A stretch of DNA of 64,000 bases from a virus: positions 1-64,000 of IMG/VR virus record IMGVR_UViG_3300044859_002168; one strand, given 5' to 3'. Every line of letters begins with the position of its first letter. Position 1 is the first letter of the stretch. The translations under genes and the position numbers were made by a program. The notes beneath the pieces were generated by a model, which made no database searches, was not told the origin of the DNA, and saw nothing but the letters and a program-made list of their open reading frames with translations. Shown here piece by piece: positions 8,542-50,689 of the stretch.

Positions 8542-8543
8542 AA

Positions 8544-8762
8544 TTATGAATTTAATTGTTTCCCAATCATTTTACATTTGTGTCTCATATCACAAATGAT
8601 TTCAAAATACAAATGTGTATCTAATTGTTTGATTTGTGGTTGTTCAGAAAAGTTATCAATCAATCGTTCGGCAGTTCTAATTTGCTCAGATGTCTGACAA
8701 CTATCAATTACTTTATGGACCCATTTAATCAGGTCTCCGTAGTGAACTTCGTTTTTACTCAT
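8544..8762 (-). CDS. Hypothetical protein
   Basis: ORF with TATATTTG promoter element just upstream. Confidence 0.7.
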   Translation of the reverse strand: MSKNEVHYGDLIKWVHKVIDSCQTSEQIRTAERLIDNFSEQPQIKQLDTHLYFEIICDMRHKCKMIGKQLNS

Positions 8763-8810
8763 AGAGCAAATATAATATAAAAAACTTCACTCACAAGTTA
8801 GGGTGTTAAA

Positions 8811-9038
8811 TTATTCTTCATCTTTAAATGGAAACCCACCCCAAAGGATTCTAATCAATCCCAAAGAGAGAGCATGATGTTGCCCATCATAATAAAAATG
8901 GTCGTAATGAAACCTCCACAAACCAAATTCAAATGTAAGATAATCTAATTTTGTAAATTTGGATAACCATTGTGAGTGTCCACCACTTTTTGTTGGTTTA
9001 CCATCAAATACTTTAATTTTTTTTCGGAGAACTTTCAT
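8811..9038 (-). CDS. Hypothetical protein
   Basis: ORF in minus-strand run. Confidence 0.6.
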   Translation of the reverse strand: MKVLRKKIKVFDGKPTKSGGHSQWLSKFTKLDYLTFEFGLWRFHYDHFYYDGQHHALSLGLIRILWGGFPFKDEE

Positions 9039-9066
9039 TTGTTATATTTTTAAAAAATATAGTAAA

Positions 9067-9327
9067 CTATTCCTCTCCGCCCAACTCTGAACTCAAAATT
9101 TCATATACTCTGTCAAGAACTTCTAAGGTAAAGTCCTCACCGTACACACCATTAATCTCTCTGAACTTAGAAATCATTCTATCTGAGATGTAATTTACTT
9201 TGTTTTGTTTGTTTGGTTTTTTGTCAATATCCATATTAAAATCAAATGATTGTGGGAGTTCAGGGTATTTTACCGCAATCTCCTTAATTAAATCAATAAG
9301 TTGTGATTCCGTTAACCGAACTTTCAT
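9067..9327 (-). CDS. Hypothetical protein with leader MKVRLTESQL
   Basis: ORF; shared leader motif. Confidence 0.75.
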   Translation of the reverse strand: MKVRLTESQLIDLIKEIAVKYPELPQSFDFNMDIDKKPNKQNKVNYISDRMISKFREINGVYGEDFTLEVLDRVYEILSSELGGEE

Positions 9328-9338
9328 ACTATTAAATA

Positions 9339-21634: not shown

Positions 21635-22747
21635 CTAACCCATTTTTATTTTCTGATAAAGATGAAGTGCCTGAGCAATCACTTGGTGCATATCATAGTA
21701 TTGATAGGTTCCTAACCTACCACCAAACATATACTTCTCAAGTTTATCACCTTGTATTTTGTATTTGGTGTAAATCTCACTATTTGTATCATCCTTGATT
21801 GGATAATAAGGCTCGTTATCACCTGTGTAGTCACAGGGATATTCTTTACTAACATAACTTGTTTTTTGATTTTGATAGTCAAAGAACTTATGTTCTAAAA
21901 TCCTTGTAAATGGTGTATCACTGTCTGTGTAATTAACCACAGGATGTCCTTGGAAACTGTGAGAGGTAATGTGGACGTTCTCCCATGTCAAACTACGGTA
22001 TTCCAATCTACCATGTTCGTAATTAAAAAATTTATCAATCGGACCTGTGTAGATTATCTTATCAGCAACTTCTTCCCACATTCCTTTGTTTTCAAAGAAG
22101 TCTTGGTTCAAGAACACATCAACATTATCCAATAACTTTTCAAATATTTGTGTATACCCACCAACAGGAATACCTTGGTATCTATCGTTGAAGTAATTAT
22201 TGTCCCACGTAAACCTTACAGGTATTCTCTTAATGATTGACGCAGGTAGTTCCGTACATTTCTTCCCCCACTGTTTCTCAGTATATCCCTTAATAAACTT
22301 TTCATATATGTCGGTACCGACCATAGACAAGGCTTGTTGCTCTAAGTTAGTTACAGGACCCTTGTATCTTTGTTCCTCTATCTTCGCTCTTGCCTGTTCT
22401 TCTGTCTTCACACCCCACAGTTGGTAAAACGTCCACATATTAAATGGAAGGGTGTATAGTTCTTCTTTGTAGTTTGCTATGGGTGAATTAACAAACTGTT
22501 TAAAATCTGCAAATTGGTTTACCCAATCCCATATCTTTTTACTATCTGTATGAAAGATGTGAGCACCGTATCGGTGAACATGAATTCCGTCAACATCTTC
22601 GGTGTAACAGTTACCCCCAATGTGACTTCTTTTATCTATTACAAGTACTCTATGATTTTTACCCAACTCGTAGGCACAGGTTGCTCCAAAGAGTCCTGCA
22701 CCTACGATTAGATAATCATATTTCTTATTCGAAATCAAATTCAACAC
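21635..22747 (-). CDS. glf: UDP-galactopyranose mutase
   Basis: IVGAGLFG, HIGGNCY, YGAHIFHT, GYTEKQWG, EPYYP, GRLGTYQYYDMHQ. Confidence 0.96.
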   Translation of the reverse strand: MLNLISNKKYDYLIVGAGLFGATCAYELGKNHRVLVIDKRSHIGGNCYTEDVDGIHVHRYGAHIFHTDSKKIWDWVNQFADFKQFVNSPIANYKEELYTLPFNMWTFYQLWGVKTEEQARAKIEEQRYKGPVTNLEQQALSMVGTDIYEKFIKGYTEKQWGKKCTELPASIIKRIPVRFTWDNNYFNDRYQGIPVGGYTQIFEKLLDNVDVFLNQDFFENKGMWEEVADKIIYTGPIDKFFNYEHGRLEYRSLTWENVHITSHSFQGHPVVNYTDSDTPFTRILEHKFFDYQNQKTSYVSKEYPCDYTGDNEPYYPIKDDTNSEIYTKYKIQGDKLEKYMFGGRLGTYQYYDMHQVIAQALHLYQKIKMG

Positions 22748-23888
22748 CGTCAGAACTTAATACAGGTTCCTCAATTCTACGTTTGAGTTTATCTGACCAC
22801 TCTTGTAAGAAATTTGATGTGTTATGGTAACAACGGTCTTCAATCAAGAAACACATCTGAGGGAATGGATTCACTCTTTCTTGTCCCATCATAATTTGTA
22901 AGTGTCCATAGATTTCATCGTATCTTCTTTGAGTCTCCAAGAAGAAACACAGGTAGAGTAAGTGTTCGTTTCTTGTTGGTGCGAACGCCTCTGCCTGATG
23001 AAAACACTTTTCAGCCTTCTCCAAGTCACCAATTACTTCCCAAGCCTGACCCATCAAGATAAATGCGAAGTAAGCCATCTCATCAATTCTTGCAGGTCTA
23101 CCAGTTACATAATAGTTATGAGAATACTCCATGAACTTTTCATAGTAGAAAATACATCTTCTAGCAAATTCTTTTGAGTGGTCTAATCCAAATGGAAGTT
23201 CATCAGACTTACCCCAACAGTCAGAGTATGATTTTGCAACGTACCAAAGGTGATATAAATCTTCTCTAACGGTATTACCAACCACTTTGTCAATTTCAAG
23301 TTCCAAAGCGTCTTTCAAGAACTTCCTTGGAACATGCCAAGTCTGTCCGTCACTGTGAACCACGTGTCTAAATCCTTCAGGGAGAGTAACTCTAACAAAC
23401 CCTTCACCGATTTCAGGTAAGTGGATTGTTTCGTGTCTTTTATCGTGTTGGAAGAACCATGGTCGGTCAGCATTCCACAACCAAGTTCGGTAGTATCTCA
23501 TACCGTTTGCATGTGCAATTACATTATAAGAATCCACACTCAAGTCATCCAATACGGACCAATCAAAATCTTCATCAACCTCAAGAATCTCATCAGCATC
23601 CATCCTCAAAATCCATTGACATCCGTGGTCTGTTTGGAGACATGTCTTCAAGGTATGGTCTCGGTTCCAACCTGGATATTGCCATTCAATCTCATAGAGT
23701 AAACCAGGGATTCCTTTTTCCGCAAAGAAGTCACGGATAATGTCCTGAGTTCCGTCTTTTGAACCGTTATCTTGGATAACCCAATAGTCAATGTGTTTCC
23801 ACACTGTTTCTAACATTCGGGTTATTGTTGGCGCCTCGTTGGCAACCATTGCGTTTAAACACAATTTAATTTTCTTGTTATTATTCAT
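22725..23888 (-). CDS. GT2-like glycosyltransferase with C-terminal TPR region
   Basis: MVANEA, DNGSKDGT, MDADE, HE motif; helical TPR-like C-terminus. Confidence 0.8.
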   Translation of the reverse strand: MNNNKKIKLCLNAMVANEAPTITRMLETVWKHIDYWVIQDNGSKDGTQDIIRDFFAEKGIPGLLYEIEWQYPGWNRDHTLKTCLQTDHGCQWILRMDADEILEVDEDFDWSVLDDLSVDSYNVIAHANGMRYYRTWLWNADRPWFFQHDKRHETIHLPEIGEGFVRVTLPEGFRHVVHSDGQTWHVPRKFLKDALELEIDKVVGNTVREDLYHLWYVAKSYSDCWGKSDELPFGLDHSKEFARRCIFYYEKFMEYSHNYYVTGRPARIDEMAYFAFILMGQAWEVIGDLEKAEKCFHQAEAFAPTRNEHLLYLCFFLETQRRYDEIYGHLQIMMGQERVNPFPQMCFLIEDRCYHNTSNFLQEWSDKLKRRIEEPVLSSDGVEFDFE

Positions 23889-29081: not shown

Positions 29082-29375
29082 TTATTTGGTAACTAAAGCT
29101 TCCACCTTAGATTTCATATGTTCTGACAAACTAAGTTCACCAACTGTTGGTGTAACCAAGGAAGTCAAAACAATAGAATCAACCAAATACTTGTAAGGAA
29201 TGTGAACCAAGAAGTCGGTACCATTGAAGAAATCTAAATCTCCTTTGAGTTCCAAACAACCGTGAACCATCTTCAAAAACAACTTAAACTGAACACCATC
29301 AACAAAGGTTTCATTCAAGAGGGTTCCGAACTTCTCGTTCTCAATCCGAATATTGTATGTAAAATTTATTTTCAT
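29082..29375 (-). CDS. Hypothetical protein
   Basis: ORF with TTTG...TATATTTG promoter upstream. Confidence 0.75.
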   Translation of the reverse strand: MKINFTYNIRIENEKFGTLLNETFVDGVQFKLFLKMVHGCLELKGDLDFFNGTDFLVHIPYKYLVDSIVLTSLVTPTVGELSLSEHMKSKVEALVTK

Positions 29376-29422
29376 ATCTGTTGTTTAACACTACAAATAT
29401 AAAAAGAACTTTCCATATAAAC

Positions 29423-29455
29423 AAAAAAACCCGAAGATTTTTTTCTTCGGGTTTT
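29423..29455 (-). terminator. Intrinsic terminator closing the large ncRNA
   Basis: AAAACCCGAAGA-loop-TCTTCGGGTTTTTTT. Confidence 0.85.
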
Positions 29456-30376
29456 GGCACTTAGGTTGAGAATACACCTTTGATTGAGAATCTTTAGGAA
29501 CATTATTGTTTCTTTCCGTTTCCACTATCTTTTGAATAGTAATTCTCAGTGACGGTTCCTTAGGGGTACCACTCCTTGAGTTGTAGCTTACTCTCTTTTT
29601 ACTTATTACTCTCCGAGGTTGCCACCCCAGTGAATCCTTGCGGGATTAGAGAACGTTCTCAAGAATCGTGTGGGTCTTGGAAACCCACAACGGCAATGAA
29701 CATCTCATTACTATGTAGTCACCTTTCACCTACAACTGACGGACACTTTTCCTTTGTCTTTTAGTATTTGCATACCTATAAAATGCAAAGTTTGTTGTTT
29801 GTGGATGGATGAAAGTAGTGGTCCGCCGACCAGCCAAGCCATCTTTTGAACGACTCGATACTATACTACTCTCTGAGATATCCCTACCTCAACACTTCAA
29901 GACTACTTCGTGACTTATGTCTTGGTAGACAATGGTCAAGGATGATTTCGGCACCACCCGTTTGTCATCATACCTTTCGGTTTTAAGTATCCTTTGATAT
30001 TGAATCCCGCAGTTATAAGGTTGGATTACCCTATTTCCCACAACAATTCTACGAGTTATTCTTATTGTTCTTCCGAACTCAACCCAACGACCCACATCGC
30101 TGAGTCATATTTCCATTTCATCTACAGTGTCACCCTCGATTACTTAGGACTTATGATATCCCGCTTGCCTACTCGAGTTAATAAAACCGAAGTTTTAAAA
30201 ACCGCAATCTCTTTTAAACTTGAGAGACCACTTTATCCCACTTTCGTGGTTTATTTATCGACCATAGGCGGCCGATTATCTTTTCTCAGTATTTTCTCAA
30301 AATCAACCCAAGGGTCTCATCATCAACATACTGATGGAATAATCAATAATTTAAAGAACGTTTCAGTTTCCTGATT
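29456..30376 (-). ncRNA. Large (~0.9 kb) structured ncRNA, GOLLD-like
   Basis: No credible ORF; own promoter and terminator; GAAA, GCAA and UUCG hairpins; directly downstream of a tRNA; size and context fit GOLLD. Confidence 0.7.
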
Positions 30377-30383
30377 TGTTATA

Positions 30384-30413
30384 CAAAGATACAACAGTTT
30401 TTCATTCTGTCAA
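30384..30413 (-). promoter_or_regulatory. sigmaA-type promoter of the large ncRNA, with boxA-like CGTTCTTTAAA at 30350-30360
   Basis: TTG-N19-TATCTTTG on minus strand. Confidence 0.75.
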
Positions 30414-30433
30414 GCACCTTCGTGTTTTTTTTG

Positions 30434-30506
30434 TAGCGGGAGAGGGAATCGAACCCCCGACCTCAAGGTTATGAGCCTTGCGAGCTACCGCTGCTACTAT
30501 CCCGCG
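30434..30506 (-). tRNA. tRNA-Met(CAT), initiator type; CCA not encoded
   Basis: CGCGGGA/TCCCGCT acceptor with C1:U72 mismatch; CAAGG-CTCATAA-CCTTG anticodon arm; GGTTCGATT T-loop. Confidence 0.95.
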
Positions 30507-30530
30507 ATTTATTTTTAAGAACGTTCCCCG

Positions 30531-30618
30531 AAAAAAAGTCCCACAACTTATTGTATTCTCTCGAACACTCGTTGTAGGACTGTGAATTGAGGATTTAACT
30601 CCTCTTCTTCCGAGTGTC
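30531..30618 (-). ncRNA. Structured leader or small RNA upstream of the tRNA (pseudoknot or switch)
   Basis: 30611-18 pairs with 30564-71; 30571-81 pairs with 30537-47, followed by a U-run; promoter TTGACA..TATCTTTG at 30622-30652. Confidence 0.5.
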
Positions 30619-30731
30619 TCACAAAGATAAAACAATTTTTTCAAATTGTCAAAAGGGCTAAGTGAAACTTTTTTGTGGGGTGTTTCTACCTTTCGGTGGA
30701 GATTATAAATATAGACATACTATTGAAAAGT

Positions 30732-31160
30732 TCAATCTTTTTCAAAAATATTTTGTAAAATTGTTTTCAAATATACTCCTGTATCCATATTATTGACTTT
30801 ATCCAAACCAAAATACCCACATTCAGTGTGTTCATGTCCATCTTGAGCGGTTTCAAGGTTAGGGTACATATACTCATGGGTATTCAACAAATAAACATAC
30901 ATCATACCTTTTATACTACCGTCAGTCTTTTTCTTTTTTGGTAGTATACCCACAAAATCTAAATCGTAGTTATCTATGTTAATATCGGTCTCTTCGTAAA
31001 ACTCTCTGTACGCAGCTTCTTTAGTTGATTCATCTTTTTCAACGTGTCCTGAAGGAATAGACCACATATTAGGGTAAGATGACTTACCGTTTCTTTTACA
31101 CAATAAGCATTCACCGTTAACTTTAACGACCACACCACTCAACCTTTTATACTTTTCCAT
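30732..31160 (-). CDS. NUDIX hydrolase
   Basis: GHVEKDESTKEAAYREFYEETDI Nudix box. Confidence 0.92.
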   Translation of the reverse strand: MEKYKRLSGVVVKVNGECLLCKRNGKSSYPNMWSIPSGHVEKDESTKEAAYREFYEETDINIDNYDLDFVGILPKKKKTDGSIKGMMYVYLLNTHEYMYPNLETAQDGHEHTECGYFGLDKVNNMDTGVYLKTILQNIFEKD

Positions 31161-34904: not shown

Positions 34905-35783
34905 TTAAACCACCTCAATTGGTTTTTCAGGAAATTCTATAACCTGTTGTCTTTTTTGTTGAACAAAAAACCCAACCCTTTCATTAGCCACTTTGGAGTA
35001 GTTAGAACTGATTTCAATACCAATCCAACGACGGTCTAAAGTCTCGGCAGCAACCATACTTGTACCTGAACCAGCAAACGGGTCAAGGACAATATCATTC
35101 TTATATGTGAGAATCTTAATTGCCTTGGTTGGGATATCCATTGAGAAGGTCGCCTTTGTCAATGAACGAGTATCGGCAAAATAATTCCACTGTCCAAATA
35201 CCAAATCAATAAACTCACGTTTCTGTTGTTCGGTATACATCATCTTGGGTCTCATGTTACCGTCTTTACCTTCAACCTCACCCATCTCACCAACCCATTC
35301 AGGTTGTCCTTTAACAATCTTAATATGTTTCTTCTTATACGCCAAGATAACACATTCCTTTGGATTGTAGATGTAAGGTGCCGAGGGACTCATCCATGAC
35401 CCCCAAGCTGTGGTACGACTTCTGTGTGGTGATTCTTCTTCAAGGTCCACAACTCCGAAGAACTTGTAACCAATCTGTTTCATAATTTGCCATACCTCAC
35501 TCAACATGAAGATTCTTCCACCCTTGGCTTGTCGGTTAATCTCATACGGGATATTCAAAGCAATCCTGCCGTCATCTTTCAACACACGGTATGCTTGTTC
35601 CATCCAGGAATATGTAAATTTAACATATTCCTCCCAAACCATATCATCATCGTGAACATCATATTCAATCCCGACACCATATGGTGGTGATGTCACAATC
35701 AAATCTACAGACCCTTCTTCCATGGTCTTCATCACTTCAATACAATCTCCGTTTACTATTTTTCCTAAATAATTTTCTGTCAT
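34905..35783 (-). CDS. DNA methyltransferase, beta class
   Basis: TSPPY; DPFAGSGTS; GIEIS. Confidence 0.92.
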   Translation of the reverse strand: MTENYLGKIVNGDCIEVMKTMEEGSVDLIVTSPPYGVGIEYDVHDDDMVWEEYVKFTYSWMEQAYRVLKDDGRIALNIPYEINRQAKGGRIFMLSEVWQIMKQIGYKFFGVVDLEEESPHRSRTTAWGSWMSPSAPYIYNPKECVILAYKKKHIKIVKGQPEWVGEMGEVEGKDGNMRPKMMYTEQQKREFIDLVFGQWNYFADTRSLTKATFSMDIPTKAIKILTYKNDIVLDPFAGSGTSMVAAETLDRRWIGIEISSNYSKVANERVGFFVQQKRQQVIEFPEKPIEVV

Positions 35784-35784
35784 T

Positions 35785-35988
35785 TTAATATATTGTTACT
35801 TTGTGGTCTCTTACAATAATAGGATTTTCTGTTTCAAATTCCAACCATGCTTGACCACCGTCTAAGAATGTTTTTGTTTTAACCGATACCTGAAATTCAA
35901 GACACCTGATTGTAAGTTTTTTATCCTCGGATTGTATTACCCAACCGACTTCCATGGAACCTGTCGCAGCCAATCTGTACTTCATCAC
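35785..35988 (-). CDS. Hypothetical protein
   Basis: Coupled ORF in operon. Confidence 0.65.
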   Translation of the reverse strand: MMKYRLAATGSMEVGWVIQSEDKKLTIRCLEFQVSVKTKTFLDGGQAWLEFETENPIIVRDHKVTIY

Positions 35989-36200
35989 TCAATAACCAAA
36001 CAACAATCTTCAATGGTAATTTTTTTAGCATTACAAGTAATATGACCTGTTTCTCTACCATCATCTCTATACCCGCTAGAAGAGTTTATCTGACACAGAA
36101 ATTCTATTGAATCAACTTTTAAAAGTTGTTTATCAATAAACACTTTCCATGGTCTGTCTCCGTTTTTGTGGTTTGAATTATATCGTACCTCAACCAACAT
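35985..36200 (-). CDS. Hypothetical protein
   Basis: Coupled ORF in operon. Confidence 0.65.
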   Translation of the reverse strand: MLVEVRYNSNHKNGDRPWKVFIDKQLLKVDSIEFLCQINSSSGYRDDGRETGHITCNAKKITIEDCCLVIE

Positions 36201-36417
36201 TTTCTAAATTATCAATCTTCCTTTGAAGATACCAAAGAGCTTTTTTTAAGTCTTGTAATTCTTTATCACTACCTTTCTTACCAGCCCTTGAGATATACTT
36301 CACCGTATTCCCAAGATGGAAGTCAAGTTCCCAAGCCTCAATTACTTTGATGGCCTCATACATATTATCCTCACCCCCATAATGAACCGGGTGGTTTACC
36401 ATTTCATTTAATGACAT
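36190..36417 (-). CDS. DUF3310 family protein
   Basis: VNHPVHY..EAIKVI..GNTVKYISRAGKK..DLKKALWYL. Confidence 0.9.
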   Translation of the reverse strand: MSLNEMVNHPVHYGGEDNMYEAIKVIEAWELDFHLGNTVKYISRAGKKGSDKELQDLKKALWYLQRKIDNLENVG

Positions 36418-36418
36418 A

Positions 36419-36637
36419 TTATCTTAAAGTAATGTAATAATTTTTTAGTTTAATTGATTTTTTGTATCCGTTCCTAACAGAAAACAAAGGGTTTTTAGTC
36501 CAACATATTTTGTATGAAAAGATTCCTATCCACCCATTTTCTTCTGACCTAACCAAAGAAAAGATATATTTCTTTCCCCAAGTCAAATGAATCTCATTGA
36601 TAAATTTATTCTTGAGTCGATATAGTTTTAATGACAT
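36419..36637 (-). CDS. Hypothetical protein
   Basis: ORF in operon. Confidence 0.55.
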   Translation of the reverse strand: MSLKLYRLKNKFINEIHLTWGKKYIFSLVRSEENGWIGIFSYKICWTKNPLFSVRNGYKKSIKLKNYYITLR

Positions 36638-36806
36638 AATATTTTGAAGCTAATGGAGTTTCAATTATTAGACCCTGTGATACAAGGTCTTCCAAATACT
36701 TTTCTGTAGTCTCCAAGTCCTCCTTCAAAATATATCGTGAGATGTACGATATGTGAAGGGGTCTCCGTAGTTTTAAAAGGAGACTATTTAGTTTTTTTTC
36801 GTCCAT
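36606..36806 (-). CDS. Small winged-helix-like protein
   Basis: PLHISYIS..LEDLVSQGLIIE pattern. Confidence 0.6.
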   Translation of the reverse strand: MDEKKLNSLLLKLRRPLHISYISRYILKEDLETTEKYLEDLVSQGLIIETPLASKYYVIKTISTQE

Positions 36807-37014
36807 AAGATTTCTTCTCTACTTCTTTTGATTTCTTTTTCTTTGGCTCCTCCATCACAACCTCTTTCTCACCTGTTGAACCTTTAAACTCAGACTTGGA
36901 GATGTAATTCCAATATCCTGTTGATACTCTACGCTCAGCGTCTTTGTCTACAACACGCAGCATGTGACCCTCTTTGTAAGGTCCTGTTGATTTTATCGCT
37001 TTAATACATTTCAT
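36784..37014 (-). CDS. Hypothetical basic protein
   Basis: ORF in operon. Confidence 0.7.
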   Translation of the reverse strand: MKCIKAIKSTGPYKEGHMLRVVDKDAERRVSTGYWNYISKSEFKGSTGEKEVVMEEPKKKKSKEVEKKSYGRKKTK

Positions 37015-37220
37015 AAAAATAAATTTTGGTTTTGTTTTTTAAGTGTGGAAAAGATTTGAGATTCATCGTGACCCTGTTGAAATAAATTAAAAACATCAGA
37101 TGATATGGTATCCATAAAAATAAAAGCATCCACCCTCGGAGAGAACAGAGTCTTTAAATCGGAATTTTCCAAATGAACTTTTACCGTCTTTTGGTCTACG
37201 AATCGTTTTGTGAATCCCAT
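37011..37220 (-). CDS. Hypothetical protein (MGFTKRF...)
   Basis: ORF in operon. Confidence 0.65.
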   Translation of the reverse strand: MGFTKRFVDQKTVKVHLENSDLKTLFSPRVDAFIFMDTISSDVFNLFQQGHDESQIFSTLKKQNQNLFL

Positions 37221-37229
37221 GAGACAATA

Positions 37230-38015
37230 TTAGGAAATAATTTTTAGACTGTCAAACGATTCCCAATCTTCTTTTGGAACACTTTGAAGGATATATGCCA
37301 ATAGTTTTCTCTTTAACATCGGAACCAAAGTCTGTTCAAATGGGAAGTTTTCATTGGTCTCTACCTCAAATATCGGTAACTTGGTGAAATCTACCAAGTC
37401 CTTCCACGATGTCGCATCTTTTACTAACGTGGTAACTCGTTGACCTTGGGGGTCACCACTCCATACCATATCAAAATAAATCTTGGCGTCTGATTTGGTT
37501 CTCTTCATCTTTCTAATTGAATACTCCCACAAAAATACTTGTTTCTTACTTTTGTTGGGGTAATAGATGTATCCGTGACCAAACCCCATATTGTCTTTGT
37601 TTTTCTTTAGATTGATTGCTGTTGATTCATATACTATGGACCAAATGGACTTTCCAATATTAAAAGTGTCCATCAATCTGTTACCAGAAAAAACCAATGT
37701 CTTTTCTAACTCACTGAAATCACTGTCTTGTAGTTCGGGTAACTTAAGTGGTTGAAGTTCTTTCAAGAGAATCTCATCATCACAAGATTCAAATTTCTTT
37801 TTTGTTTGTAGTAACCTTTTTTCTTTAACTAAAGATTGAACATTCGCTAAGTGAAGTGCCAACTCAACAAAATCAGGATAAATTTTAAACTCGTCAAAAT
37901 TTTCCTCACATTTTTGAATGTAATTAAGTAAGGTATATTTGTTATACTCAAAATCTATTGGTTGCGAGAGCATCCAATCAGGATTTAATTTAAATGATTT
38001 TTTCTTCCTCGCCAT
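37230..38015 (-). CDS. Hypothetical protein (PIDFEYNKYTLLNY motif)
   Basis: Long ORF. Confidence 0.8.
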   Translation of the reverse strand: MARKKKSFKLNPDWMLSQPIDFEYNKYTLLNYIQKCEENFDEFKIYPDFVELALHLANVQSLVKEKRLLQTKKKFESCDDEILLKELQPLKLPELQDSDFSELEKTLVFSGNRLMDTFNIGKSIWSIVYESTAINLKKNKDNMGFGHGYIYYPNKSKKQVFLWEYSIRKMKRTKSDAKIYFDMVWSGDPQGQRVTTLVKDATSWKDLVDFTKLPIFEVETNENFPFEQTLVPMLKRKLLAYILQSVPKEDWESFDSLKIIS

Positions 38016-39346: not shown

Positions 39347-40336
39347 ATGGCACTTATTGATTTAGCAATTAAAGATTTCAACGAGGGTGATTACGACCTA
39401 ATTGAAACAGCATTTAATGGCGATATATTCTCATTCTTTAATTATGCTGATAAAAGAGGTAAATTTGATGAAATTATTGCCGATGATTATAATCACAACG
39501 ATTATGAAAACGATTACACTCTGTGGGTTTCTAATAACAAACCAGAAATTTTCCGTAAACTTATTGAAGACAAATTATCCGATGTGAAATACATTGATGG
39601 TAAATGGTATTTTATAACATCTGATAGGGGAGATTTATCCAAACTTTATTGTGACAGTAGAGATATTAGTCGTGAAACAATAGAATCTATATTGTCAGGA
39701 GAATATGATAGTTCTGATTATTGGGATTCAGGAATAGATGTCTATGACAACGTAATTGATGATTTAAATGACCAAAACAAACAAACTTTAATTGAAAAAT
39801 TATTAGAGGAATTGAAAGATGAAAGAATTACACCGTCAACAGATTTATTAGAAGAAATTGCATCGTCACAAGGTCATGATGAATATGTATCTTTAGATAC
39901 TGAAACATTAAATAGAATAATAGATGATAAAGATTCTATAAAAGAAATCCTACCCGATGATTTAGACAGTGAGTTAATAAGTTTATATTGGAGTGCATAT
40001 AATGCCGCATATGAAGATGAACTCTACAAATCTATTTGGGGTGAACTTGATTCTATATTTGAAGGTAATGGTGAATGGACTCAAACACCATCCCCTTTTG
40101 ATAAAAATAAATTTATCCAAGCATTTAAAATACCTTTTATTAATTTGGAATCAATTGTAAAAGATTATCTTGAGGATAATCTTAGATATAGAGATAGAAC
40201 CTTGGAGTATTGGGGTAACATCATTAATATAATAGATGATACTCACGATTGTTTAAGAGTTAGAGTCCCTGAATAGGCAGATTGGACTGATACTAAAGAA
40301 AATATTAATTCTCTTTACAACGATTACATTTCTTAA
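39347..40336 (+). CDS. Acidic hypothetical protein, probably interrupted by an in-frame TAG at 40274-40276
   Basis: Start MALIDL after TATTTATA; frame stays open 19 codons past the TAG to a TAA overlapping the convergent gene stop. Confidence 0.65.
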
Positions 40337-43300
40337 AGTAATCTTTTTTCTTTCGCCTTTACTACAAGTTTTTGAGCTCTGTCTTCAATTGAGTTAATAA
40401 TAACTTCTTGCTCTTTTAAAGCTTCAATACACACGGCAATCATCTCTTTGTATTTCATGGTGTAGTGTTTTTCTTCACTACCAGATACAAGTTCAGGGAA
40501 ATATGGTAAAACTTCTTGAGCAATAAAACCAATGTTTTTATGTCCAAGTTTTTCTTTATCATCCCAATTATAATAGAATTCAACACCACGAATTTTAATT
40601 AAATTTTCAAGTGCAGATTCAATAGGTTCAATGTTTGTCTTTAATCTAATGTCGGATGGTCCTGTAGGTCCTGTAGCACCTTGTGCACCCGTATTACCCG
40701 TGGCTCCTTGTGCTCCTGTAGCACCTTGAGCACCAAAAGTAGAACCTGCCTTTCCTTGAGCACCTGTAGGTCCTTGAGCACCACCTGCACCAGGTCCTTG
40801 AGCACCTGTTGCACCTTGGGAACCTGTAGGTGCGGTACCTGGAAAACCTTGAGCACCTTGAGCACCCGCACCTTCAGAAGGAAAACCTTGAGCACCTTGT
40901 GTACCAACCGCACCTTGAGCACCTTGTCCTCCTTGTGGTCCTTGAGCACCTTGTGGTCCTTGAGTTCCTTGTCCACCCGCAGCACCTGTTGAGCCACCTC
41001 CACCCTGAGAACCTTGTCCTCCTTGAGTACCCTGAGCACCTTGTCCTCCCTGAGCTCCTTGTGAACCTTGTCCTCCTTGAGTACCTTGAGCACCTTGACC
41101 TCCTTGAGAACCTTGTGAACCTTGAGCACCTGTAGAGCCACCTCCACCTTGCGAACCTTGTCCTCCCTGAGCTCCTTGTGAACCTGTAGCACCTCCACCA
41201 CCAGCACCACCTTGCGAACCTTGTCCTCCTTGAGCTCCTTGTGAACCTGTTGCACCTCCACCGCCAGTTCCTCCTTGAGCACCTTGTCCTCCTGTTGGTC
41301 CTGTGGCACCTTTACCTCCTTGTGAACCTTGTCCTCCTTGTGAACCTTGTCCTCCTGTTGGTCCTGTGTCACCTTTACCTCCTTGTGAACCTTGTCCTCC
41401 TTGTGAACCTTGTCCTCCTGTAGACCCCTGAGCACCTTGAGCACCTTGTCCTCCTTGTGAACCTTGAGCACCTTTACCACCTTGAGAACCTTGAGAACCT
41501 GTAGCACCTCCACCACCAGTCCCACCTTGAGAACCTTGACCTCCTTGTGAACCTTGTGAACCTTGAGCACCTGTGGAACCACCTCCACCTTGAGAACCTT
41601 GACCTCCTTGTGAACCTTGAGCACCACCTCCACCTTGAGAACCTTGACCTCCTTGAGTTCCTTGTCCTCCTTGAGAACCTTGTCCTCCTTGTCCTCCTTG
41701 AGTACCTTGTGAACCTTGAGCACCCTGACTACCAACACCACCTATCGAACCTTGAGCTCCCTGACCACCTTGAGTACCTTGGAAACCTTGTCCTCCTTGA
41801 GCCCCTTGATTACCTGTTGCTCCTTGTGAACCGGTCGCTCCTTGGAAACCTTGTCCACCCTGAGCTCCTTGGGAACCAACCGCACCTTGAGAACCTTGTC
41901 CTCCTTGAGAACCTTGTCCTCCTTGTGAACCGACCGCTCCTTGCGAACCTTGCCCTCCTTGAACACCCTGAGCACCTTGTCCTCCTTGAGAACCTGTAGC
42001 ACCTTGAGAACCCTGTCCTCCTTGAGTACCCTGAGCACCTTGTCCTCCTTGAGAACCTTGTGAACCAACCGCACCTTGTGAACCTTGAGCTCCCTGTACT
42101 CCTTGACCTCCTTGAGCACCTTGACCTCCTTGAGCACCTTGACCTCCTTGAGAACCTTGAACTCCTTGACCCCCTTGAGCTCCTTGTGAACCTATATTAC
42201 CTTGAGTTCCTTGAGTTCCTTGAGCTCCTTGTCCTCCTTGAGAACCTACAGGACCTTGAGCACCTTGTCCTCCCTGAGTTCCCTGAACACCTTGACCTCC
42301 TTGAGAACCTTGTGAACCTATATTACCTTGAGCACCCTGTCCTCCTTGAGCACCCTGTCCTCCTTGAGAACCTTGTCCTCCTTGTCCTCCTTGAGTACCT
42401 TGTGAACCTTGAGCCCCTTGACCTCCTTGAGCCCCAAGTGAACCAAGACTACCTTGTGAACCTTGACCTCCTTGAGTACCCTGTCCTCCTTGAGCGCCAA
42501 CAGCTCCTTGTGAACCTTGACCTCCTTGAGTACCTTGAGCACCTTGTCCTCCTTGAGCACCTTGAGCTCCAATAGAACCTTGAGCTCCAATAGCACCTTG
42601 CGAACCTTGTCCCCCTTGAGCACCTTGATTACCTGTTGCTCCTTGTGAACCAACCGCACCTTGAGCACCTTGTCCCCCTTGAGCACCTTGATTACCTGTT
42701 GCTCCTTGTGAACCAACCGCACCTTGTGAACCTTGTCCTCCCTGAGTACCTTGTGAACCTGTATTACCTTGAGCTCCAATAGGACCTTGAACACCCTGAG
42801 CGCCTTTAGCTCCTACATTACCTTGACTTCCTTGGCTTCCTTGACCTCCTTGAGCACCTTGACCTCCTTGAGCACCTTGCGAACCTACAGGACCTAAAAA
42901 TCCTTGAGAACCTTGAGCGCCATCCGCACCTACCGAACCTTGAGCACCTATACTACCTTGAGAACCTTGAGCACCCTGAGCTCCTTGTCCTCCTTGAGAA
43001 CCTTGTGAACCTATATTACCCTGAGAACCTTGAGCACCCTGAGCTCCTTGTCCCCCTTGTGAACCCTGTCCTCCCTGAGTACCTTGTGCTCCTTGAGTAC
43101 CTTGTGAACCCTGTCCTCCCTGAGTACCTTGTGAACCTACACTACCAACAGCACCTTGTGAACCTTGTCCCCCTTGAGAACCCTGTCCTCCTTGAGTACC
43201 TTGTGAACCTTGAGGTCCTTTTCCACCTTGAGCACCTTGTCCTCCTTGAGAACCAACATTACCTGTTGCACCTTGTGAACCAACATTACCTTGAGCACCT

Positions 43301-43632
43301 TTACCACCTTGAGAACCCTGAGCTCCCGCAGCACCTTGAGAACCCTGAGCTCCCGCAGCACCCTGAGCTCCTGTTGGTCCGGTATTTGCTGTACCCGTCC
43401 AAAGAGCATTATTAACTACCGTACCTGCAGTTGTTGCAATAGTACTAAAAACATAAAGATTGTTAAAAAACAACCTAAATTTAGGTGAGGTATTAATAAC
43501 TTTAAAATAAACAGTAGTACTGACTTTCCAATCAAGTACAGCACTGGAGTAAACCCAAGTTGCCTTAGTATTATTTGTATCATACAACTCAACAGTTGCA
43601 CTACCTGGTAATATAATGATATCCTTAGCCAC
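40333..43632 (-). CDS. Collagen-like fibre protein with C-terminal Peptidase S74 intramolecular chaperone
   Basis: ~900 aa of G-X-Q triplets (GAQ/GSQ/GGQ); [23 protein letters not shown]. Confidence 0.9.
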
Positions 43633-46600
43633 CTATTTTTGTACTTAAATCTTTAAGAAAATTATTCAACACTTCAACTCTTTTTTGGTTTTCAATTAAT
43701 GCTGATACACCAACCGAAACCAATAGTTCATATTGTAAATTCTTATAACCATATTTATCTGTCCAAACTAAATCTGGATATTTTTCTTCAATTTCTTGAG
43801 CAATAAATCCAAGATTCGTACCTGTAATTAGATATCTGTACTCTGGTAAATAATCTGATAATTGAGGAATGTCCTCAACCCAATCAAATTTAACACCTCT
43901 CATGCTAACAATGTTTTGTCTAACGTTTGTGAGAGGTTTAATATTTGTTTTATATCTGGCATCTGACGGTGGTCCTTGAGCACCTGTGGCACCTTGAGCA
44001 CCTTGTGGTCCTTTACCACCTTGAGCACCTGTACCTCCACTCGGTCCTTTTGCACCTTGAGAACCCTCAGCACCTTGAGCTCCGTTACCACTCGGTCCTT
44101 TTGTACCTTGAGCACCTTGTGAACCTTGTCCTCCTCCAGGTCCTTTTGGTCCTTGAGCACCTTGTGGGCCTGGCGTTGGTGGACCAATTGACCCTGCAGC
44201 ACCTATAGTTCCTTGAGCTCCTGTATTTCCCGTGGAACCTGTATTTCCCGCAGCACCTTGAGCACCCTGAGTAGAACTCGCGCTACCTTGAGCACCTTGG
44301 GCTCCTTGAGCTCCTGTATTAGCACCCTGAGCACCTTGTGCTCCTTGAGTTGTACTATTAGCTCCCTGAGCACCTGTATTACCTTGAGCACCTGTTGCAC
44401 CTTGAGTAGAACCTTGAGCTCCTTGAGCTCCTGTGGAACCTCCACCACCTTGTGAACCCTGAGCACCTGTAACACTACTTTGAGCTCCTTGAGCACCTTG
44501 TCCTCCTTGAGAACCTTGACCTCCTTGTGCACCTTGTACAGAACTTTGAGCTCCTTGAGCACCTTGTCCTCCTTGAGAACCTTGACCTCCTTGTGCACCT
44601 GTACTAGCCCCTTGAGCTCCTTGTGAACCCTGAGCACCTTGGGCACCTGTAGCACCTTGAGCTCCTGTACTAGCCCCTTGAGCTCCTTGTGAACCCTGAG
44701 CACCTTGTTTACCCGTAGCTCCTTGGTCACCTTGAACCGAACTTTGAGCACCCTGAGCACCTTGTCCACCTTGAGCACCTTGACCACCTTGAGCACCTGT
44801 ATTAGCACCTTGAGCTCCTTGTGCACCTGTTGAACCTCCACCACCTTGGGAACCCTGAGCACCTGTCACACTACTTTGAGCACCAGTACTTCCTTGTGAA
44901 CCCTGAGCACCTGTACTTCCTTGAGCACCTGTAGGTCCTCCTTGAGCACCTTGTGCTCCTTGAGAACCTTGTTTACCAACAGCACCTTGAGCACCTGTAA
45001 CTCCTCCTTGAGGACCTTGAGTACCTTGAGCACCTGTATTACCTGTAGCTCCTTGAGCGCCCGTATTACCTCCTTGAGCACCTGTACTACCTTGAGTACC
45101 TTGGGCTCCTTGAGCACCTTGGGCTCCTGTGTTAGCTCCTTGTGCCCCTTGTGCTCCTTGAGCTCCTTGAGCTCCTGTACTACCTTGAGCTCCTGTAACA
45201 CCACCTTGAGCTCCTTGAGCACCTTGAGCTCCCGTATTACCTGTGGCACCTTGAGCTCCCGTGGTTCCACCTTGAGCTCCTTGAGCACCTTGAGCTCCCG
45301 TATTACCTGTGGCACCTTGAGCTCCCGTGGTTCCACCTTGAGCTCCTTGAGCTCCTTGTCCTCCTTGAGCACCTGTAACTCCCGTAGCACCCGCAGTACC
45401 TCCTTGAGCACCTATATTACCTTGGGCACCTGTATTACCTGTCGCACCTTGGGCACCCTGTACAGAACTTTGTGCACCTTGAGCTCCTTGAGCTCCTTGT
45501 GAACCTGTATTACCTTGAGCACCTTGAGAAGCTCCTTGAGCTCCTTGAGCTCCTTGAGCACCTGTATTACCTGTAGCACCTTGAGCACCTTGGACGGAAC
45601 TTTGAGCTCCTTGAGCTCCTTGAGCTCCTTGAGCACCCGTACTACCTTGAGCACCTGTAACACCACCTTGAGCTCCTTGAGCACCTTGGGCACCTTGTTT
45701 ACCTATAGCTCCTTGAGCACCTGTACTAGCACCTTGAGCTCCTTGGAATCCTTGAGCACCTTGAGCACCCGTACTACCTTGAGCACCTGTAACACCACCT
45801 TGAGCTCCTTGAGCACCTTGAGCACCCGTGTTTCCTGTAGCACCTTGAGCACCTGTGACACTACTTTGAGCACCCACAGAACCTTGAGCACCTTGGGCTC
45901 CTTGAGCCCCTTGAGCTCCTGTGTTAGCTCCCTGAGCACCTTGAGCTCCTTTAGGTCCTTGAGCACCTTGAGCACCTTGAGCACCTGTATTAGCACCCTG
46001 AGCACCTTGGGAACCTGTTGGTCCTTGAGCTCCCTGAGCTCCTTGAGCTCCCGTACTAGCACCTTGAGCTCCTTGAGCTCCTTGTCCACCTTGTGAACCT
46101 TGCCCACCTTGAGCACCAGGAGTATCATCCGTACTACCCTGAGTACCTTGGGCTCCTTGTGCACCTGTACTACCTTGAGCTCCTGTACTCGCACCTTGAG
46201 CTCCCTGAGCACCTGTTGGTCCTTGAGAACCTTGTGCACCTGTTGGTCCGATTACAATACTCGCAGTTCCTTGACTACCTTGGGCACCTTGGGCACCTGT
46301 ATTACCTTGAGCACCCGTGCTAGCACCTTGAGCACCTTGGGCACCCTGAGCACCTTGGGCACCTGTATTACCTTGAGCACCTTGTGTGGAACTGTTAGCA
46401 CCTTGAGTTCCTTGAGCACCTTGGGCACCCGTTTTTCCTTGAGCACCTTGGACTGAACTTTGAGCACCTTGAGTACCTTGTGCACCTTGAGCTCCCTGAG
46501 CACCTGTATTACCTTGAGCTCCCGTACTAGCGCCCTGTGCACCTTGAGCACCTTGTGTACCCTGAGCTCCTTGAGCACCTGTGTTAGCCCCTTGGGCTCC

Positions 46601-47032
46601 CTGTCCACCTTGTGTACCTTGAGCACCTTGTCCTCCCTGAGAACCTTGAGCCCCTTGTGCTCCTTGGGGTCCTTGTGTACCTTGAGCTCCTGTTGGTCCT
46701 TGTGTACCTTGAGCTCCTTGAGCTCCTTTAATATTGGCTTGTGAACCTATCCATTCTCCAAGGTAGTTAATAATCTGAACATATGTAGAACTACCATCCC
46801 ACGCGTAAATACCTTCACCACTACTTAGGTCATTAACAGAAAAACCTTTAGAAGTGACTGCTTGAGTACCAATACTACCTACAGAAGAATCTGTGGATGA
46901 TGAAAATGTTAAATCACCATTAGCATTAACTTTTTGAACCAACTGATTACCAGTGGCATCCTCATAAATAATAAAAGGTACACCACCTGAAAAGGTGTTA
47001 CCTGAAGGGTATATTATAATATCATTAGCCAT
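43625..47032 (-). CDS. Collagen-like fibre protein (interrupted triplets) with S74 chaperone
   Basis: GAQ repeats with GANT/GAST/SSV interruptions; [26 protein letters not shown]. Confidence 0.9.
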
Positions 47033-50000
47033 TAGTAATTCTCAATATATTCCTCTAACATAGTTAATCTTTCATCAACAGATGCAATGTTATTTTGATG
47101 TTCTTTAATACCTTCCACTAAATATGCATTAAGTTGCGGATAAAGGATATAGTAATATCCATTTTCTCTCATTCTTACCACTTCAGGGATGTGTTCTCTA
47201 ACTTGTTGAGCAACAAATCCTAAAGAGTGTGTTTTGTTATTTTGAAGGTAATAATCATATTCAGGAGTATTTTCTGTCCAATCAAACTCAACAGGTTGTA
47301 ACATCATCAATTTTGTTAATGAGCCCTCTAAAGTTATAACTTCATTTTTAAGTCTTAAATCTGAGAAACAACATACCAACGTACAAGTTACATCTACAGT
47401 GGCTTGATACTCCGCTATTACCAAATTAATAAGACTATCACAACCAGAACAGTCATCTATATCATAAACTTTATCATTTGAGGTACAGTTAGGCATCATC
47501 ACATTCGAGTAAACATTTGGCATTCCCATCGGCGCTAGAAAATCACAATCTGGAAATAATCCAACAAAACCAACATCATAACACGCAGGTGCTGCTGGAG
47601 GCCCTGTCGCTCCTTGAGCACCTTGAGCTCCTTGAGGACCTTGTGTACCTGTTGCACCTTGGGCTCCTTGAAGACCTTGACCTCCTGTTTGTCCTTGAGC
47701 CCCTTGTGCACCAGGTGAACCAGGAATACCCGTACCACCTTGAGCCCCTTGAGCTCCTGTATTACCAACACTACCATTCACACCTTGAGCCCCTTGAGAA
47801 CCTTGCGACGGCAATCCGTCAGGACCTTGAGCGCCTTGTCCTCCGGTAGCACCTTGAGCACCAGGACTAATTCCTGTACCTCCTTGAGAACCTTGTCCTC
47901 CTGTTGGTCCAAAACCTCCTTGAGCACCTTGAGCACCTGTACTACCTTGAGGTCCAAGATTACCAGTATTACCTGTAGGTCCTTTACCACCTTGAGCACC
48001 TTGTGAACCTGTGTCACCTCCACCACCTGTGGGACCAACCGCACCTACAGAACCTACACCACCTTGAGAACCCTGAGCACCCGTGGAACCTTGAGGTCCT
48101 ATATTACCCGTAGCACCTGCATTACCTTGTGCTCCGGTATTACCTGTATTACCTTGAGGTCCTATATTACCCGTAGCACCTTGAGGTCCTTGTGCCCCGG
48201 TATTACCTGTATTACCTTGAGCTCCTGAATGACCTGTAGCGCCCTGAGCTCCTGTGGAACCTCCTCCACCAATAGCACCTTGTGCACCTGAATGACCTGT
48301 AGCACCCTGAGCTCCTGTGGAACCTCCTCCACCAATAGCACCTTGTGCACCGGTGTGTCCTTGAGCACCTGTGTTACCTTGTGAACCTACAGGTCCTGTA
48401 GCACCTGTCGGACCTATATTACCTTGAGCTCCCGTATTACCTTGAGCTCCCGTATTTCCTGTGGCACCTTGAGCACCTGTATGTCCTGTTGCACCGGCAC
48501 CACCTTGAGAACCTTGAGCTCCTGTAGAACCCTGTGGTCCTATGGCACCTGTATTACCTTGAGCACCCGTGGAACCTTGAAGTCCTGTTGCACCTTGTGG
48601 TCCTACCGCTCCTTGAGCTCCTTCATTACCAAATACACCTGTAGGTCCTGTAGCACCTTGTGGTCCTATTGGTCCTTGAGCACCTGTTGAACCTTGAGAA
48701 CCTTGTGGTCCCGTGGCTCCTTGAGGTCCAATAGACCCCGTACCACCCTGAGCACCTTGTGCACCTGTGTTTCCTGTTGCACCTTGAGCACCCGTGTTTC
48801 CTGTTGCACCCGTGTTTCCTGTTGCACCTTGTGGTCCCGTAGCACCTTGTGGTCCAATATTACCTTGAGCACCTGTTGAACCTTGAGAACCTGTTGGTCC
48901 TGTTGCACCTTGTGGTCCAATATTACCTTGAGCACCCGTTGAACCTTGAGAACCTTGTGGTCCGATGGCACCTTGTGGTCCGATATTACCTTGAGCACCC
49001 GTTGGTCCTTGAGCTCCTTGTGGACCTTTAGGTCCTTGTGGGCCAATTGACCCTTGGCTTCCTGTATTACCTTGAGAACCTGTTGGCCCTATATTTCCTG
49101 TCGGTCCAAGGTTACCTTGAGCACCGGTATTACCTTGAGCACCTTGTGGTCCTATATTACCTTGTGCACCTGTATTACCTTGAGCACCCGTTGAACCTTG
49201 AGAACCTGTTGGCCCTATATTCCCTGTGGGTCCAAGATTACCTTGAGCACCTATATTACCTTGAGCACCAACGTTACCTACATTACCTTGAAGTCCCACC
49301 GCTCCTTGAGCACCTTCATTACCAAATACACCGGTGTTACCAGTCGCTCCTTGAGCTCCTGTATTACCTTGAGCCCCTTGTGGTCCTTGAGCACCTTGTG
49401 GCCCCGTATTTCCTTGTGGTCCTAAAGCACCTTGAGCACCTGTATTACCTTGTGAACCCGTTGGTCCTGTAGCACCTGTTGGTCCTACAGCACCTTGTGC
49501 ACCTATATTACCTTGTGCACCCGTATTACCCGTGGCTCCTTGTGCTCCTGTATGTCCCGTGTTACCTTGAGCCCCTTGTGCACCAGTATTACCCGTAGCT
49601 CCCTGAGCACCTGTATGTCCTGTATTACCTTGAGCCCCTTGAGCACCGGTATTACCCGTGGCTCCTTGAGCACCTGTATTACCCTGAGCACCTGTATTAC
49701 CCTGAGCACCTGTATTACCCTGAGCACCTGGAGGACCAATAGGTCCTTGTGCACCTGTATTACCTTGTGCACCCGTATTACCCGTAGAACCTTGAGCTCC
49801 TGTATTGCCCGTAGAACCTTGTTTACCTTGAGCCCCTTGGTCTCCTTGAGCACCTTGGTTACCAATTTTACCTTGAGCACCTATAGCTCCTTGAGCACCT
49901 GTATTACCTGCAGCTCCTTGAGCACCTGTGTTACCTTGAGCACCTATGTTACCCTGTGCACCCGTTGGTCCTTGAGCTCCTGTAAGTCCTTGAGCTCCTT

Positions 50001-50595
50001 GAGCCCCGATATTACCCTGTGCACCCGTTGGTCCTACCGCACCTGTTGGCCCAATATTACCTGTTGCACCCTGTGCTCCGGTATTACCTTGAGCACCTGT
50101 ATTTCCTACGGCTCCTTGAGCACCTGTATTACCAATGTTACCTTGAGCACCTGTATTACCCGTAGCTCCTTGAGCACCTGTGTGTCCTGTATTGCCTTGA
50201 GCACCTTGAGCACCAACGTTTCCTTGAGCACCTGTATTACCCACATTACCCTGAGCACCAATATTACCTGTATTACCCTGAGCACCAGTATTACCCGTAG
50301 CGCCTTGAGCTCCAACAATATTTGTAGTTGGACCTACCCATCCTTTAGTACCATTTAAAACTTGAACACCATTAACAGATAAATTATCCGTAACGTTAAG
50401 ATTTCTAATAGTAAATTCGGTATCAGATAATTTGAATATTGTGTTAACTCCGACAATCCATTGGAAACTTGTTGTTGAACCACCTGTGGCAACCACACGA
50501 CCTGTCATTGATGCTGTTCCACCATCAAAATAAAAATAAGGAACTGTTATACTTGAACCATCCCCCTCGGGATAAATAGTAATATTTTTAGGCAT
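47032..50595 (-). CDS. Collagen-like fibre protein with Cys-rich domain and S74 chaperone
   Basis: GAQ/GNT/GPQ triplets; Cys-rich segment; [20 protein letters not shown]; TATTTATA at 50615. Confidence 0.9.
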
Positions 50596-50689
50596 ATTTG
50601 GATTTTATACTCTCTATAAATACAAGGAGTTTTAAAACAAATCAAGAAAAAACCATTAAAATAAAAAAGGATGGTCACCCATCCTTCAA

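Follow-up and report, generated by a model that had tools for sequence, protein, structure and literature searches.

Introduction

GOLLD RNAs, reportedly described by Weinberg et al. in 2009, are among the largest non-coding RNAs of bacteria and phages, and the RNA-only cages that they form exceed the ribosome, while their function has been unknown since 2009. Here we analyze a GOLLD RNA encoded by a lake-water phage, together with the promoter, leader, tRNA and terminator that surround it, and compare this transcription unit with the described GOLLD RNAs and with the leaders of bacterial rRNA genes. The RNA lies on the minus strand of a 64,000-nt stretch of DNA (the window), which corresponds to positions 1-64,000 of an IMG/VR virus record of 89,853 bp (IMGVR_UViG_3300044859_002168); all coordinates are those of the window. 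In the account given by PMC12286853, the env-38 GOLLD RNA is 833 nt long, lies downstream of a Met-tRNA and assembles into a D7 14-mer cage that measures 380 Å across and consists of rings of 3′ domains capped by the 5′ domains. The roles proposed in the same account include encapsulating tRNAs, ribosomes or other cargo (PMC12286853).

Two further bodies of work bear on how such an RNA might be transcribed. In the rRNA (rrn) operons of Escherichia coli, as outlined in PMC10250234, boxB, boxA and boxC follow one another just after promoter P2, and a second set lies before the 23S gene; boxA is presented there as necessary and sufficient for the rrn antitermination complex. This complex resists Rho and has been proposed to act as a chaperone of rRNA folding (as summarized in PMC10250234 and PMC6614801). 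In Bacteroides and Flavobacterium, the housekeeping promoter consensus is given as TAnnTTTG at −7 with TTTG at −33 (PMC2483708, for the promoters treated there).

Results

The window encodes one full-length GOLLD RNA

The transcription unit, read 5′ to 3′ on the minus strand, consists of the following parts:

30384..30413, minus strand: proximal host-type promoter TTG-N19-TATCTTTG, of the Bacteroidota −33/−7 type (the same site reads as TTGACA-16-TATCTT, 30413..30386)
30363..30374, minus strand: leader hairpin UCAG-GAAA-CUGA, in the place that boxB takes in rRNA leaders, assigned from the covariation of helix 1
30351..30359, minus strand: boxA word GTTCTTTAA, for which the consensus of relatives is GTTCTTTGAAA
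29874..30340, minus strand: GOLLD 5′ domain, about 470 nt, assigned from homology in 75 of 117 listed loci and from covariation
29463..29873, minus strand: GOLLD 3′ domain, including the A-rich linker and a pseudoknot, assigned by the Rfam model (RF02032)
29419..29455, minus strand: intrinsic terminator with a 12-pair stem AAAACCCGAAGA...TCTTCGGGTTTT (29455..29426) and a T run, assigned by a terminator scan

A sequence-only reading of this stretch had proposed GOLLD or a relative. The Rfam covariance model of GOLLD (RF02032), which covers the 3′ domain only, matches the minus strand at 29463-29873 over its full length (model positions 1-416 of 416) and scores 318.8 bits against a gathering score of 150 bits. 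Since the match has an E-value of 1.8e-90, chance is excluded. The same reading had suggested ROOL as a second family to search for, and ROOL gave no match at its gathering score within the 64-kb window. GOLLD and one tRNA were the only families above the Rfam threshold in the window, and an Rfam scan in E-value mode over 29380-30720 returned only these two and a chance snoRNA match (E 0.48). The Rfam search found one GOLLD copy in the 89,853-bp record and no Rfam family in the remaining 25.8 kb.

Within the 3′ domain, the GOLLD helices can form, with few pairs flagged as non-standard in the model alignment, and 9 of the 10 pairs of the pseudoknot AGUUGUAGGU / AGCUACAACU are standard. All three 3′ segments that the sequence-only reading had likened to the GOLLD 3′ domain align to highly conserved positions of the model. 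The sequence-only reading had further described the interval as dense in hairpins, and the five that it named are all present within 1 nt of where it had placed them. Two of these fall in the 3′ domain: TGTGGGT..ACCCACA lies inside the Rfam match, and TTTGCAT..ATGCAAA (29789-29767) lies in the A-rich linker that the Rfam model leaves unpaired.

The interval had also been called the largest stretch of the window without a credible open reading frame (ORF). This holds in that no tiled frames occur here, but at a cutoff of at least 90 aa the window has two more gaps (8290-9339 and 35783-37230), both of them filled by back-to-back minus-strand ORFs of 66-86 aa. The frames within the GOLLD interval are scattered short ORFs and one 126-aa plus-strand ORF with a TTG start (29994-30374), which matched no Pfam family at E up to 0.01.

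Both domains are under structural selection

We compared the window copy with at least 115 IMG/VR loci found with a conserved 3′-domain pattern and with two GenBank huge phages, giving 117 loci; counts over these 117 loci, or over the 58, 56 or 39 units drawn from them, are counts among the matches listed rather than among all GOLLD relatives. Removal of duplicates left 58 non-redundant units. The whole-unit alignment has 56 rows, and the 5′-domain alignment, whose consensus was computed with RNAalifold, holds the window and 39 units. By nhmmer, the 3′ domain of the window was matched by 81 of the 117 loci, and its 5′ domain plus leader by 75. The 5′ domain is of the common environmental type.

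The RNAalifold consensus of the 5′ region contains 100 pairs, of which 61 show compensatory changes. With the leader hairpin added, 66 of 106 pairs change on both sides, a number reached in none of 500 shuffles, and covariation across homologs, which the sequence-only reading had named as a check, is thus strong in the 5′ half. Standard pairing was found in 97.4% of the cells of these 106 pairs, compared to 85.7% in the shuffles and 36-39% when partners were slid by 1-3 columns.

The 5′ domain opens with a variable first hairpin, CAGTAT...ATACTG (about 30333-30287), followed by 18 covarying helices from 30269 on. The other three hairpins named in advance are among these helices. CCAC-GAAA-GTGG (30249-30238) is helix 3, which is paired in 100% of cells and shows both-sided changes in 3 of its 4 pairs (pair variants UA 25 and CG 15, AU 34 and GC 5, and CG 34 and GC 5). 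TAAAAC-TTCG-GTTTTA (30197-30182) is the window-specific tip of helix 5, which changes on both sides in 3 of 6 pairs, and ACC-GAAA-GGT (29981-29972) is helix 16, nearly invariant and paired in 99.2% of cells. The leader hairpin, counted as helix 1, changes on both sides in 5 of its 6 pairs, with 86.9% of cells paired.

Since the RF02032 match is complete and the 5′ half covaries, the stretch between about 30340 and 29463 forms a single conserved, structured RNA with two domains, as PMC12286853 describes for GOLLD. Together, these findings show that the interval encodes a GOLLD RNA, a member of the family with both domains under structural selection.

A blastn search against 50,697 phage records returned no match covering at least 80% of the query, and most matches were confined to the tRNA-Met. 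Partial matches to the 5′ domain came from two huge uncultured phages, each of which carries an unannotated full-length GOLLD flanked by tRNAs: LR745206 (635 kb; locus L002, 418436-422656; 287 bits) and LR756502 (642 kb; locus L003, 432265-436502; 275 bits). The word GTTCTTTGA is kept in LR745206 and absent in LR756502. A scan of bacterial genomes with the 3′-domain pattern gave at least 120 loci, which we discarded as chance matches, with 0 of 120 matching the 3′ or the 5′ domain of the window by nhmmer.

The leader carries the promoter, hairpin and boxA word of rRNA leaders

In the whole-unit alignment, the most conserved sequence 5′ of the 5′ domain lies in no helix. Relatives share a leader in which a TTGACA...TAacTTTG promoter is followed by a short covarying hairpin and then by GTTCTTTGAAA. 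The word GTTCTTT[GA]A is exact in 52 of the 56 units and present with at most one mismatch in 54, while TTG-N17-21-TAnnTTTG occurs in 50; in 47 units the promoter precedes the word by 24-94 nt, and a hairpin folds between them. The word is unpaired in the consensus fold, and a search for a pairing partner in the RNA body found none beyond chance (−9.9 kcal/mol versus −9.2 for shuffled words, with 66 of 200 as good).

The promoter of the window copy lies on the minus strand, where the sequence-only reading had put it, with TATCTTTG at 30391-30384, and the transcription start would be expected near 30379. Across the window, TTG-N19-TAnnTTTG occurs at 10 sites versus 1.88 expected, and 0 of 100 shuffles reached 10.

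For comparison with rRNA genes, we started from a Saprospiraceae genome and drew on 61 genomes of its phylum, Bacteroidota; a 16S match was present in 34, and 31 loci were used, with up to 600 nt before the 16S gene taken as leader. GTTCTTTGA occurs in 13 of the 31 leaders (antisense 0; shuffle mean 0.05) and the relaxed word GTTC[ATC]TTGA in 20 (antisense 0; shuffle mean 0.155), fractions that are lower bounds since eight leaders are shorter than 250 nt. Counted over both strands of the rRNA loci, the word has 39 copies in total, 26 of them beyond the 13 in leaders. Where a promoter is visible in a 16S leader, the layout is TAnnTTTG, hairpin and word, the same as before GOLLD. What had been noted as a boxA-like element is, then, a word equal to the boxA of Bacteroidota rRNA leaders, and this identity, combined with the shared order of promoter, hairpin and word, indicates that the GOLLD leader is, judged by its sequence, a copy of the rRNA leader of the host phylum.

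A second promoter and a tRNA-Met precede the GOLLD unit

Upstream of the proximal promoter, the cassette contains four more parts:

30622..30652, minus strand: distal host-type promoter TTGACA-N-TATCTTTG (TTG-N20-TAnnTTTG), a near-copy of the proximal promoter by sequence
30527..30614, minus strand: 88-nt structured leader RNA, Y-shaped in its predicted fold, between the distal promoter and the tRNA
30512..30522, minus strand: degenerate second boxA-like word GTTCTTAAAAA, 5 nt before the tRNA, assigned from sequence and alignment
30433..30506, minus strand: tRNA-Met with anticodon CAT, assigned by ARAGORN (Rfam tRNA 30434-30506, 50.5 bits)

The adjacency of GOLLD and a tRNA for methionine, already apparent to the sequence-only reading, was borne out, with the tRNA ending 20 nt upstream of the proximal promoter. 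We take the tRNA-Met to be initiator-like on the strength of its C1.U72 mismatch and of A11:U24, both as in initiator tRNAs, although beside the anticodon loop it has only two G:C pairs. A tRNA lies within 1 kb in 14 of the 58 non-redundant relatives, and in 13 of these 14 it is a tRNA-Met (CAT) on the same strand, which makes tRNA-Met the one tRNA type that recurs beside this GOLLD clade. It stands upstream of GOLLD in six of the 13 and 6-20 nt downstream in the other seven (relatives L012, L058, L117, L033, L068, L029 and L064).

The distal promoter is conserved in the close relatives L007, L112 and L085, and L112 carries the full GTTCTTTAA where the window has GTTCTTAAAAA. Since the terminator scan found none between tRNA-Met and the proximal promoter, both promoters should feed GOLLD. 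The strong terminator proposed at the end of the unit is indeed present, its 12-pair stem preceding the T run; it is identical in L007 and L067, and at the same place L085 has another hairpin followed by T-rich sequence.

The Y-shaped RNA is predicted to fold at −37.8 kcal/mol (z −5.38), and none of 200 shuffles folded as well. Its stem GTCCTACAAC (30580-30571) / GTTGTGGGAC (30547-30538) precedes a U run, for which the predicted fold has a purine-rich 5′ strand as partner. Both-sided changes of the stem occur in L007 and L085 and in L004, and the element is homologous in only 6 of the 117 listed loci and has no Rfam match over 30527-30614. Its function could be that of a small RNA, of an attenuator or of an element for processing.

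Two further observations concern the ends of the cassette. Another TTG-N20-TAnnTTTG site (29394-29424, minus strand) lies immediately past the GOLLD terminator and before a 97-aa ORF (29082-29375). At the other end, about 50 nt upstream of the distal promoter, there is a copy of a second motif, TATTTATA, which occurs at 16 sites in the window versus 5.17 expected, a number that 0 of 100 shuffles reached. These sites, which include 16451-16458, 50615-50622, 63703-63710 and 30704-30711 (all minus strand), often lie just 5′ of where ORFs begin, as would fit a class of phage-specific promoters.

The RNA body is covered in freshwater metatranscriptome libraries

In 14 DNA runs labeled as lake water or metagenome, 0.93-0.97 of the words sampled from 29300-30800 were present, and in six metatranscriptome runs from five studies, 0.42-0.50. 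Coverage in metatranscriptomes had been suggested as a check on the sequence-only reading, and in four runs from four studies contigs of 403-723 nt cover the body of the RNA and run across the boundary between its 5′ and 3′ domains; such contigs cannot show ends or levels, and their depths cannot rank GOLLD against its neighbors. Of the three outcomes that the sequence-only reading had listed as refuting it, none was observed.

The promoter, hairpin and boxA fall within 30326-30421, over which these four RNA libraries have no contig. Contigs break off at 30316 (X17) and 30325 (X20) on this side and at 29456 (X20), 29460 (X18) and 29474 (X17) on the other. We considered a stable RNA of about 870 nt lacking leader and terminator and did not count it as evidence, as contigs cannot show ends and the stops are scattered.

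Genomic context points to a Bacteroidota phage

The record is about 30% complete by CheckV, which, taken with its length, would correspond to a phage genome of a few hundred kilobases. The host phylum is likely Bacteroidota, to judge from sequence features: the enrichment of TAnnTTTG promoters fits, as does a type IX secretion system (T9SS) C-terminal sorting domain (Por_Secre_tail, E 2e-07) in a 631-aa phage protein (14534-16429, minus strand), a signal that serves as a host clue since it is typical of Bacteroidota. Three consecutive minus-strand genes (40333-50595) encode collagen-repeat proteins of 1,099, 1,135 and 1,187 aa, each of which ends in an S74 (endosialidase chaperone) domain. These S74-chaperone fiber genes, together with the origin of the sequence in an IMG/VR virus record, establish the phage setting, and they account for the rise in G+C, which reaches 46-54% here but is 30-40% in the rest of the genome.

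The neighbors of the cassette comprise a NUDIX hydrolase (30732-31160), a DUF192 protein, a weak DHH-like protein, a DNA methylase and a 2OG-Fe(II) oxygenase. Ten large proteins of the window gave only weak matches in PHROGs, all to families of unknown function. Elsewhere, the phage encodes an ECF-type sigma factor with sigma-70 regions 2 and 4 (7745-8290, plus strand) and, among its sugar-modifying genes, a UDP-galactopyranose mutase (E 5e-76) beside a family-2 glycosyltransferase (21635-23888, minus strand).

Discussion

We are highly confident of the overall explanation, which is that the window encodes a GOLLD RNA behind a promoter, hairpin and boxA arranged as before the rRNA genes of the likely host phylum. 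What this arrangement does is less certain. We propose that host RNA polymerase would start at the two TAnnTTTG promoters, one before tRNA-Met and one before GOLLD, and that the nascent leader hairpin and boxA (GTTCTTTAA) would recruit NusB/NusE and other rRNA antitermination factors, so that the modified polymerase could resist Rho over about 0.95 kb of untranslated RNA. By analogy with rRNA genes, we think it somewhat probable that transcription from host-type promoters and recruitment of Nus factors by the leader would yield a Rho-resistant polymerase on GOLLD. The antitermination complex may also aid the folding of the long nascent RNA, as has been proposed for rRNA. The finished GOLLD RNA would then assemble, free of protein, into a closed homo-oligomeric cage, an expectation drawn from its solved relatives (14 copies in env-38) that we likewise regard as leaning toward the probable. 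For the larger proposal, in which lake-phage GOLLD is made like rRNA, with Nus-modified transcription, aided folding and cage assembly and with tRNA-Met in the same stable-RNA cassette, the case seems to us evenly balanced. As to its role, the cage may sequester or scaffold a component of translation, such as the recurrent initiator-like tRNA-Met, but this is a guess, and we think it improbable.

Several observations weigh against this account. The word of the window differs from the consensus at one position, with A for G, and the exact word is absent from 4 of the 56 units. In the whole record the word is no commoner than a backwards control (4 versus 3 copies), so only its context sets the copy in the GOLLD leader apart. 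No boxC was found, nor a leader-trailer helix (for the latter, the best duplex had −9.3 kcal/mol versus a shuffle mean of −10.7, with 324 of 500 as good), and no NusG gene or other phage Nus factor was found in the record, a fragment that is about 30% complete. The word is invariant, so covariation is silent on whether it pairs. Contigs cannot prove an RNA template, and since many contigs of the RNA libraries are 90-95% alike (in X15, 17 at ≥99%, 6 at 95-99% and 18 at 90-95%), they come partly from related phages. Finally, the GOLLD of a Lactobacillus brevis prophage was dispensable for phage production in the experiments reported in PMC7567579.

The missing boxC and leader-trailer helix, the missing Nus factor and the invariance of the word would also fit a rival reading, in which the RNA is GOLLD but the hairpin and GTTCTTT(G/A)A do not form an antitermination signal, a possibility that we hold to be rather unlikely. 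Other roles for hairpin and word would be as a site of processing or of binding by a phage or host protein, as a promoter-proximal element inherited along with a copied strong rRNA promoter, or as a part of the RNA tertiary structure; had a phage taken over an entire rRNA promoter region, boxA would have come with it whether or not it was used. On the other hand, 52 of 56 diverged units retain the word, whereas the hairpin ahead of it covaries freely, which argues for selection on the word itself. It is also unpaired in the consensus fold and has no partner better than those of shuffled words, and it is identical to the word of the host-phylum rRNA leaders and stands in the same order. According to PMC10250234, boxA by itself suffices for complex formation. 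We continue to favor antitermination as the probable function of the leader.

Two other readings concern the interval itself. It could be the structured 5′ leader or a regulatory RNA of the next minus-strand gene (29082-29375), which is on the same strand and starts about 45 nt past the T run. However, the strong intrinsic terminator at 29455-29419 would end the RNA before that gene, and a separate TTG-N20-TAnnTTTG site (29394-29424) stands between the two; moreover, different DNA lies 3′ of the RNA in relatives, 7 of 58 having a tRNA-Met there at a distance of 6-20 nt, and the family is treated in PMC12286853 as a free-standing RNA. We consider this reading very improbable. That the stretch encodes a protein, such as the 126-aa plus-strand ORF, is still less credible, and we give it almost no weight: an open frame with a TTG start is present, but besides lacking a Pfam family at E up to 0.01, it runs antisense to helices that vary by compensatory pair changes, and relatives have insertions and deletions of many lengths across the region. 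A free-standing GOLLD RNA behind an rRNA-type leader remains the explanation that we prefer.

Cage structure, phage setting and proximity to tRNAs are already known for this RNA family, as is the family itself, and as a further member the window copy adds little to the family. Its interest lies in being a cleanly delimited transcription unit that combines two host-type promoters and a terminator with a tRNA-Met and an rRNA-style leader of hairpin and boxA; the leader is common to dozens of relatives, and the RNA is present in freshwater metatranscriptome libraries. This cassette points to GOLLD being made as a stable RNA by transcription of the rRNA type. If this is true, GOLLD would have its first biogenesis rule, production in the manner of rRNA, which would offer a handle to produce or shut off the RNA in a host, and if the leader works as we infer, it would show which promoter, leader and host phylum suit the study of GOLLD in cells. 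Among the papers searched, we found none that links GOLLD with boxA or antitermination.

Among the described RNAs, the closest to the window copy is env-38 (PDB 9MEE; PMC12286853), compared here by its description in that paper. Both are built of two halves, of which the 3′ one is conserved and the 5′ one varies more, and both lie directly downstream of a tRNA-Met in a phage setting from an aquatic metagenome and have conserved GAAA loops. At about 0.85-0.95 kb, the window RNA matches the Rfam model of the env-38 family over its full length, but it comes from lake water and env-38 from a marine source. The text of PMC12286853 makes no mention of a promoter-hairpin-boxA leader, and the strings "antiterminat", "Nus" and "Bacteroid" do not occur in it. 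The GOLLD RNA of Streptococcus agalactiae (PDB 9L0R and 9LMF), as presented in PMC12990946, belongs to the same family and shares the conserved 3′ domain and the closed RNA-only oligomer. It differs in being about 700 nt long, in lacking P9, P11a-c and P21b, and in forming 12-mers, or 10-mers for the 3′ domain alone, and it comes from a Firmicutes chromosome, whereas the window copy comes from a Bacteroidota-type phage. ROOL RNAs resemble GOLLD in being large and ornate, in occurring in phages and prophages, often near tRNAs, and in forming RNA-only cages (according to PMC12286853 and PMC5737381), but their sequence and fold are unrelated.

For the leader, the nearest system is the bacterial rrn leader, within what PMC10250234 and PMC6614801 set out. 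The rrn antitermination complex consists of NusA/B/E/G, S4 and SuhB according to these sources, while for the GOLLD leader we infer the recruitment of Nus factors. Unlike the rrn leader, the GOLLD leader precedes a phage RNA rather than rRNA, and its boxC and leader-trailer helix were not found. The two agree in having a host-type promoter, a hairpin and boxA in that order, in the word itself, which Bacteroidota 16S leaders carry in identical form, in a promoter-plus-boxA unit that occurs twice in succession within a cassette that also contains a tRNA, and in a product that is a long, untranslated, structured RNA.

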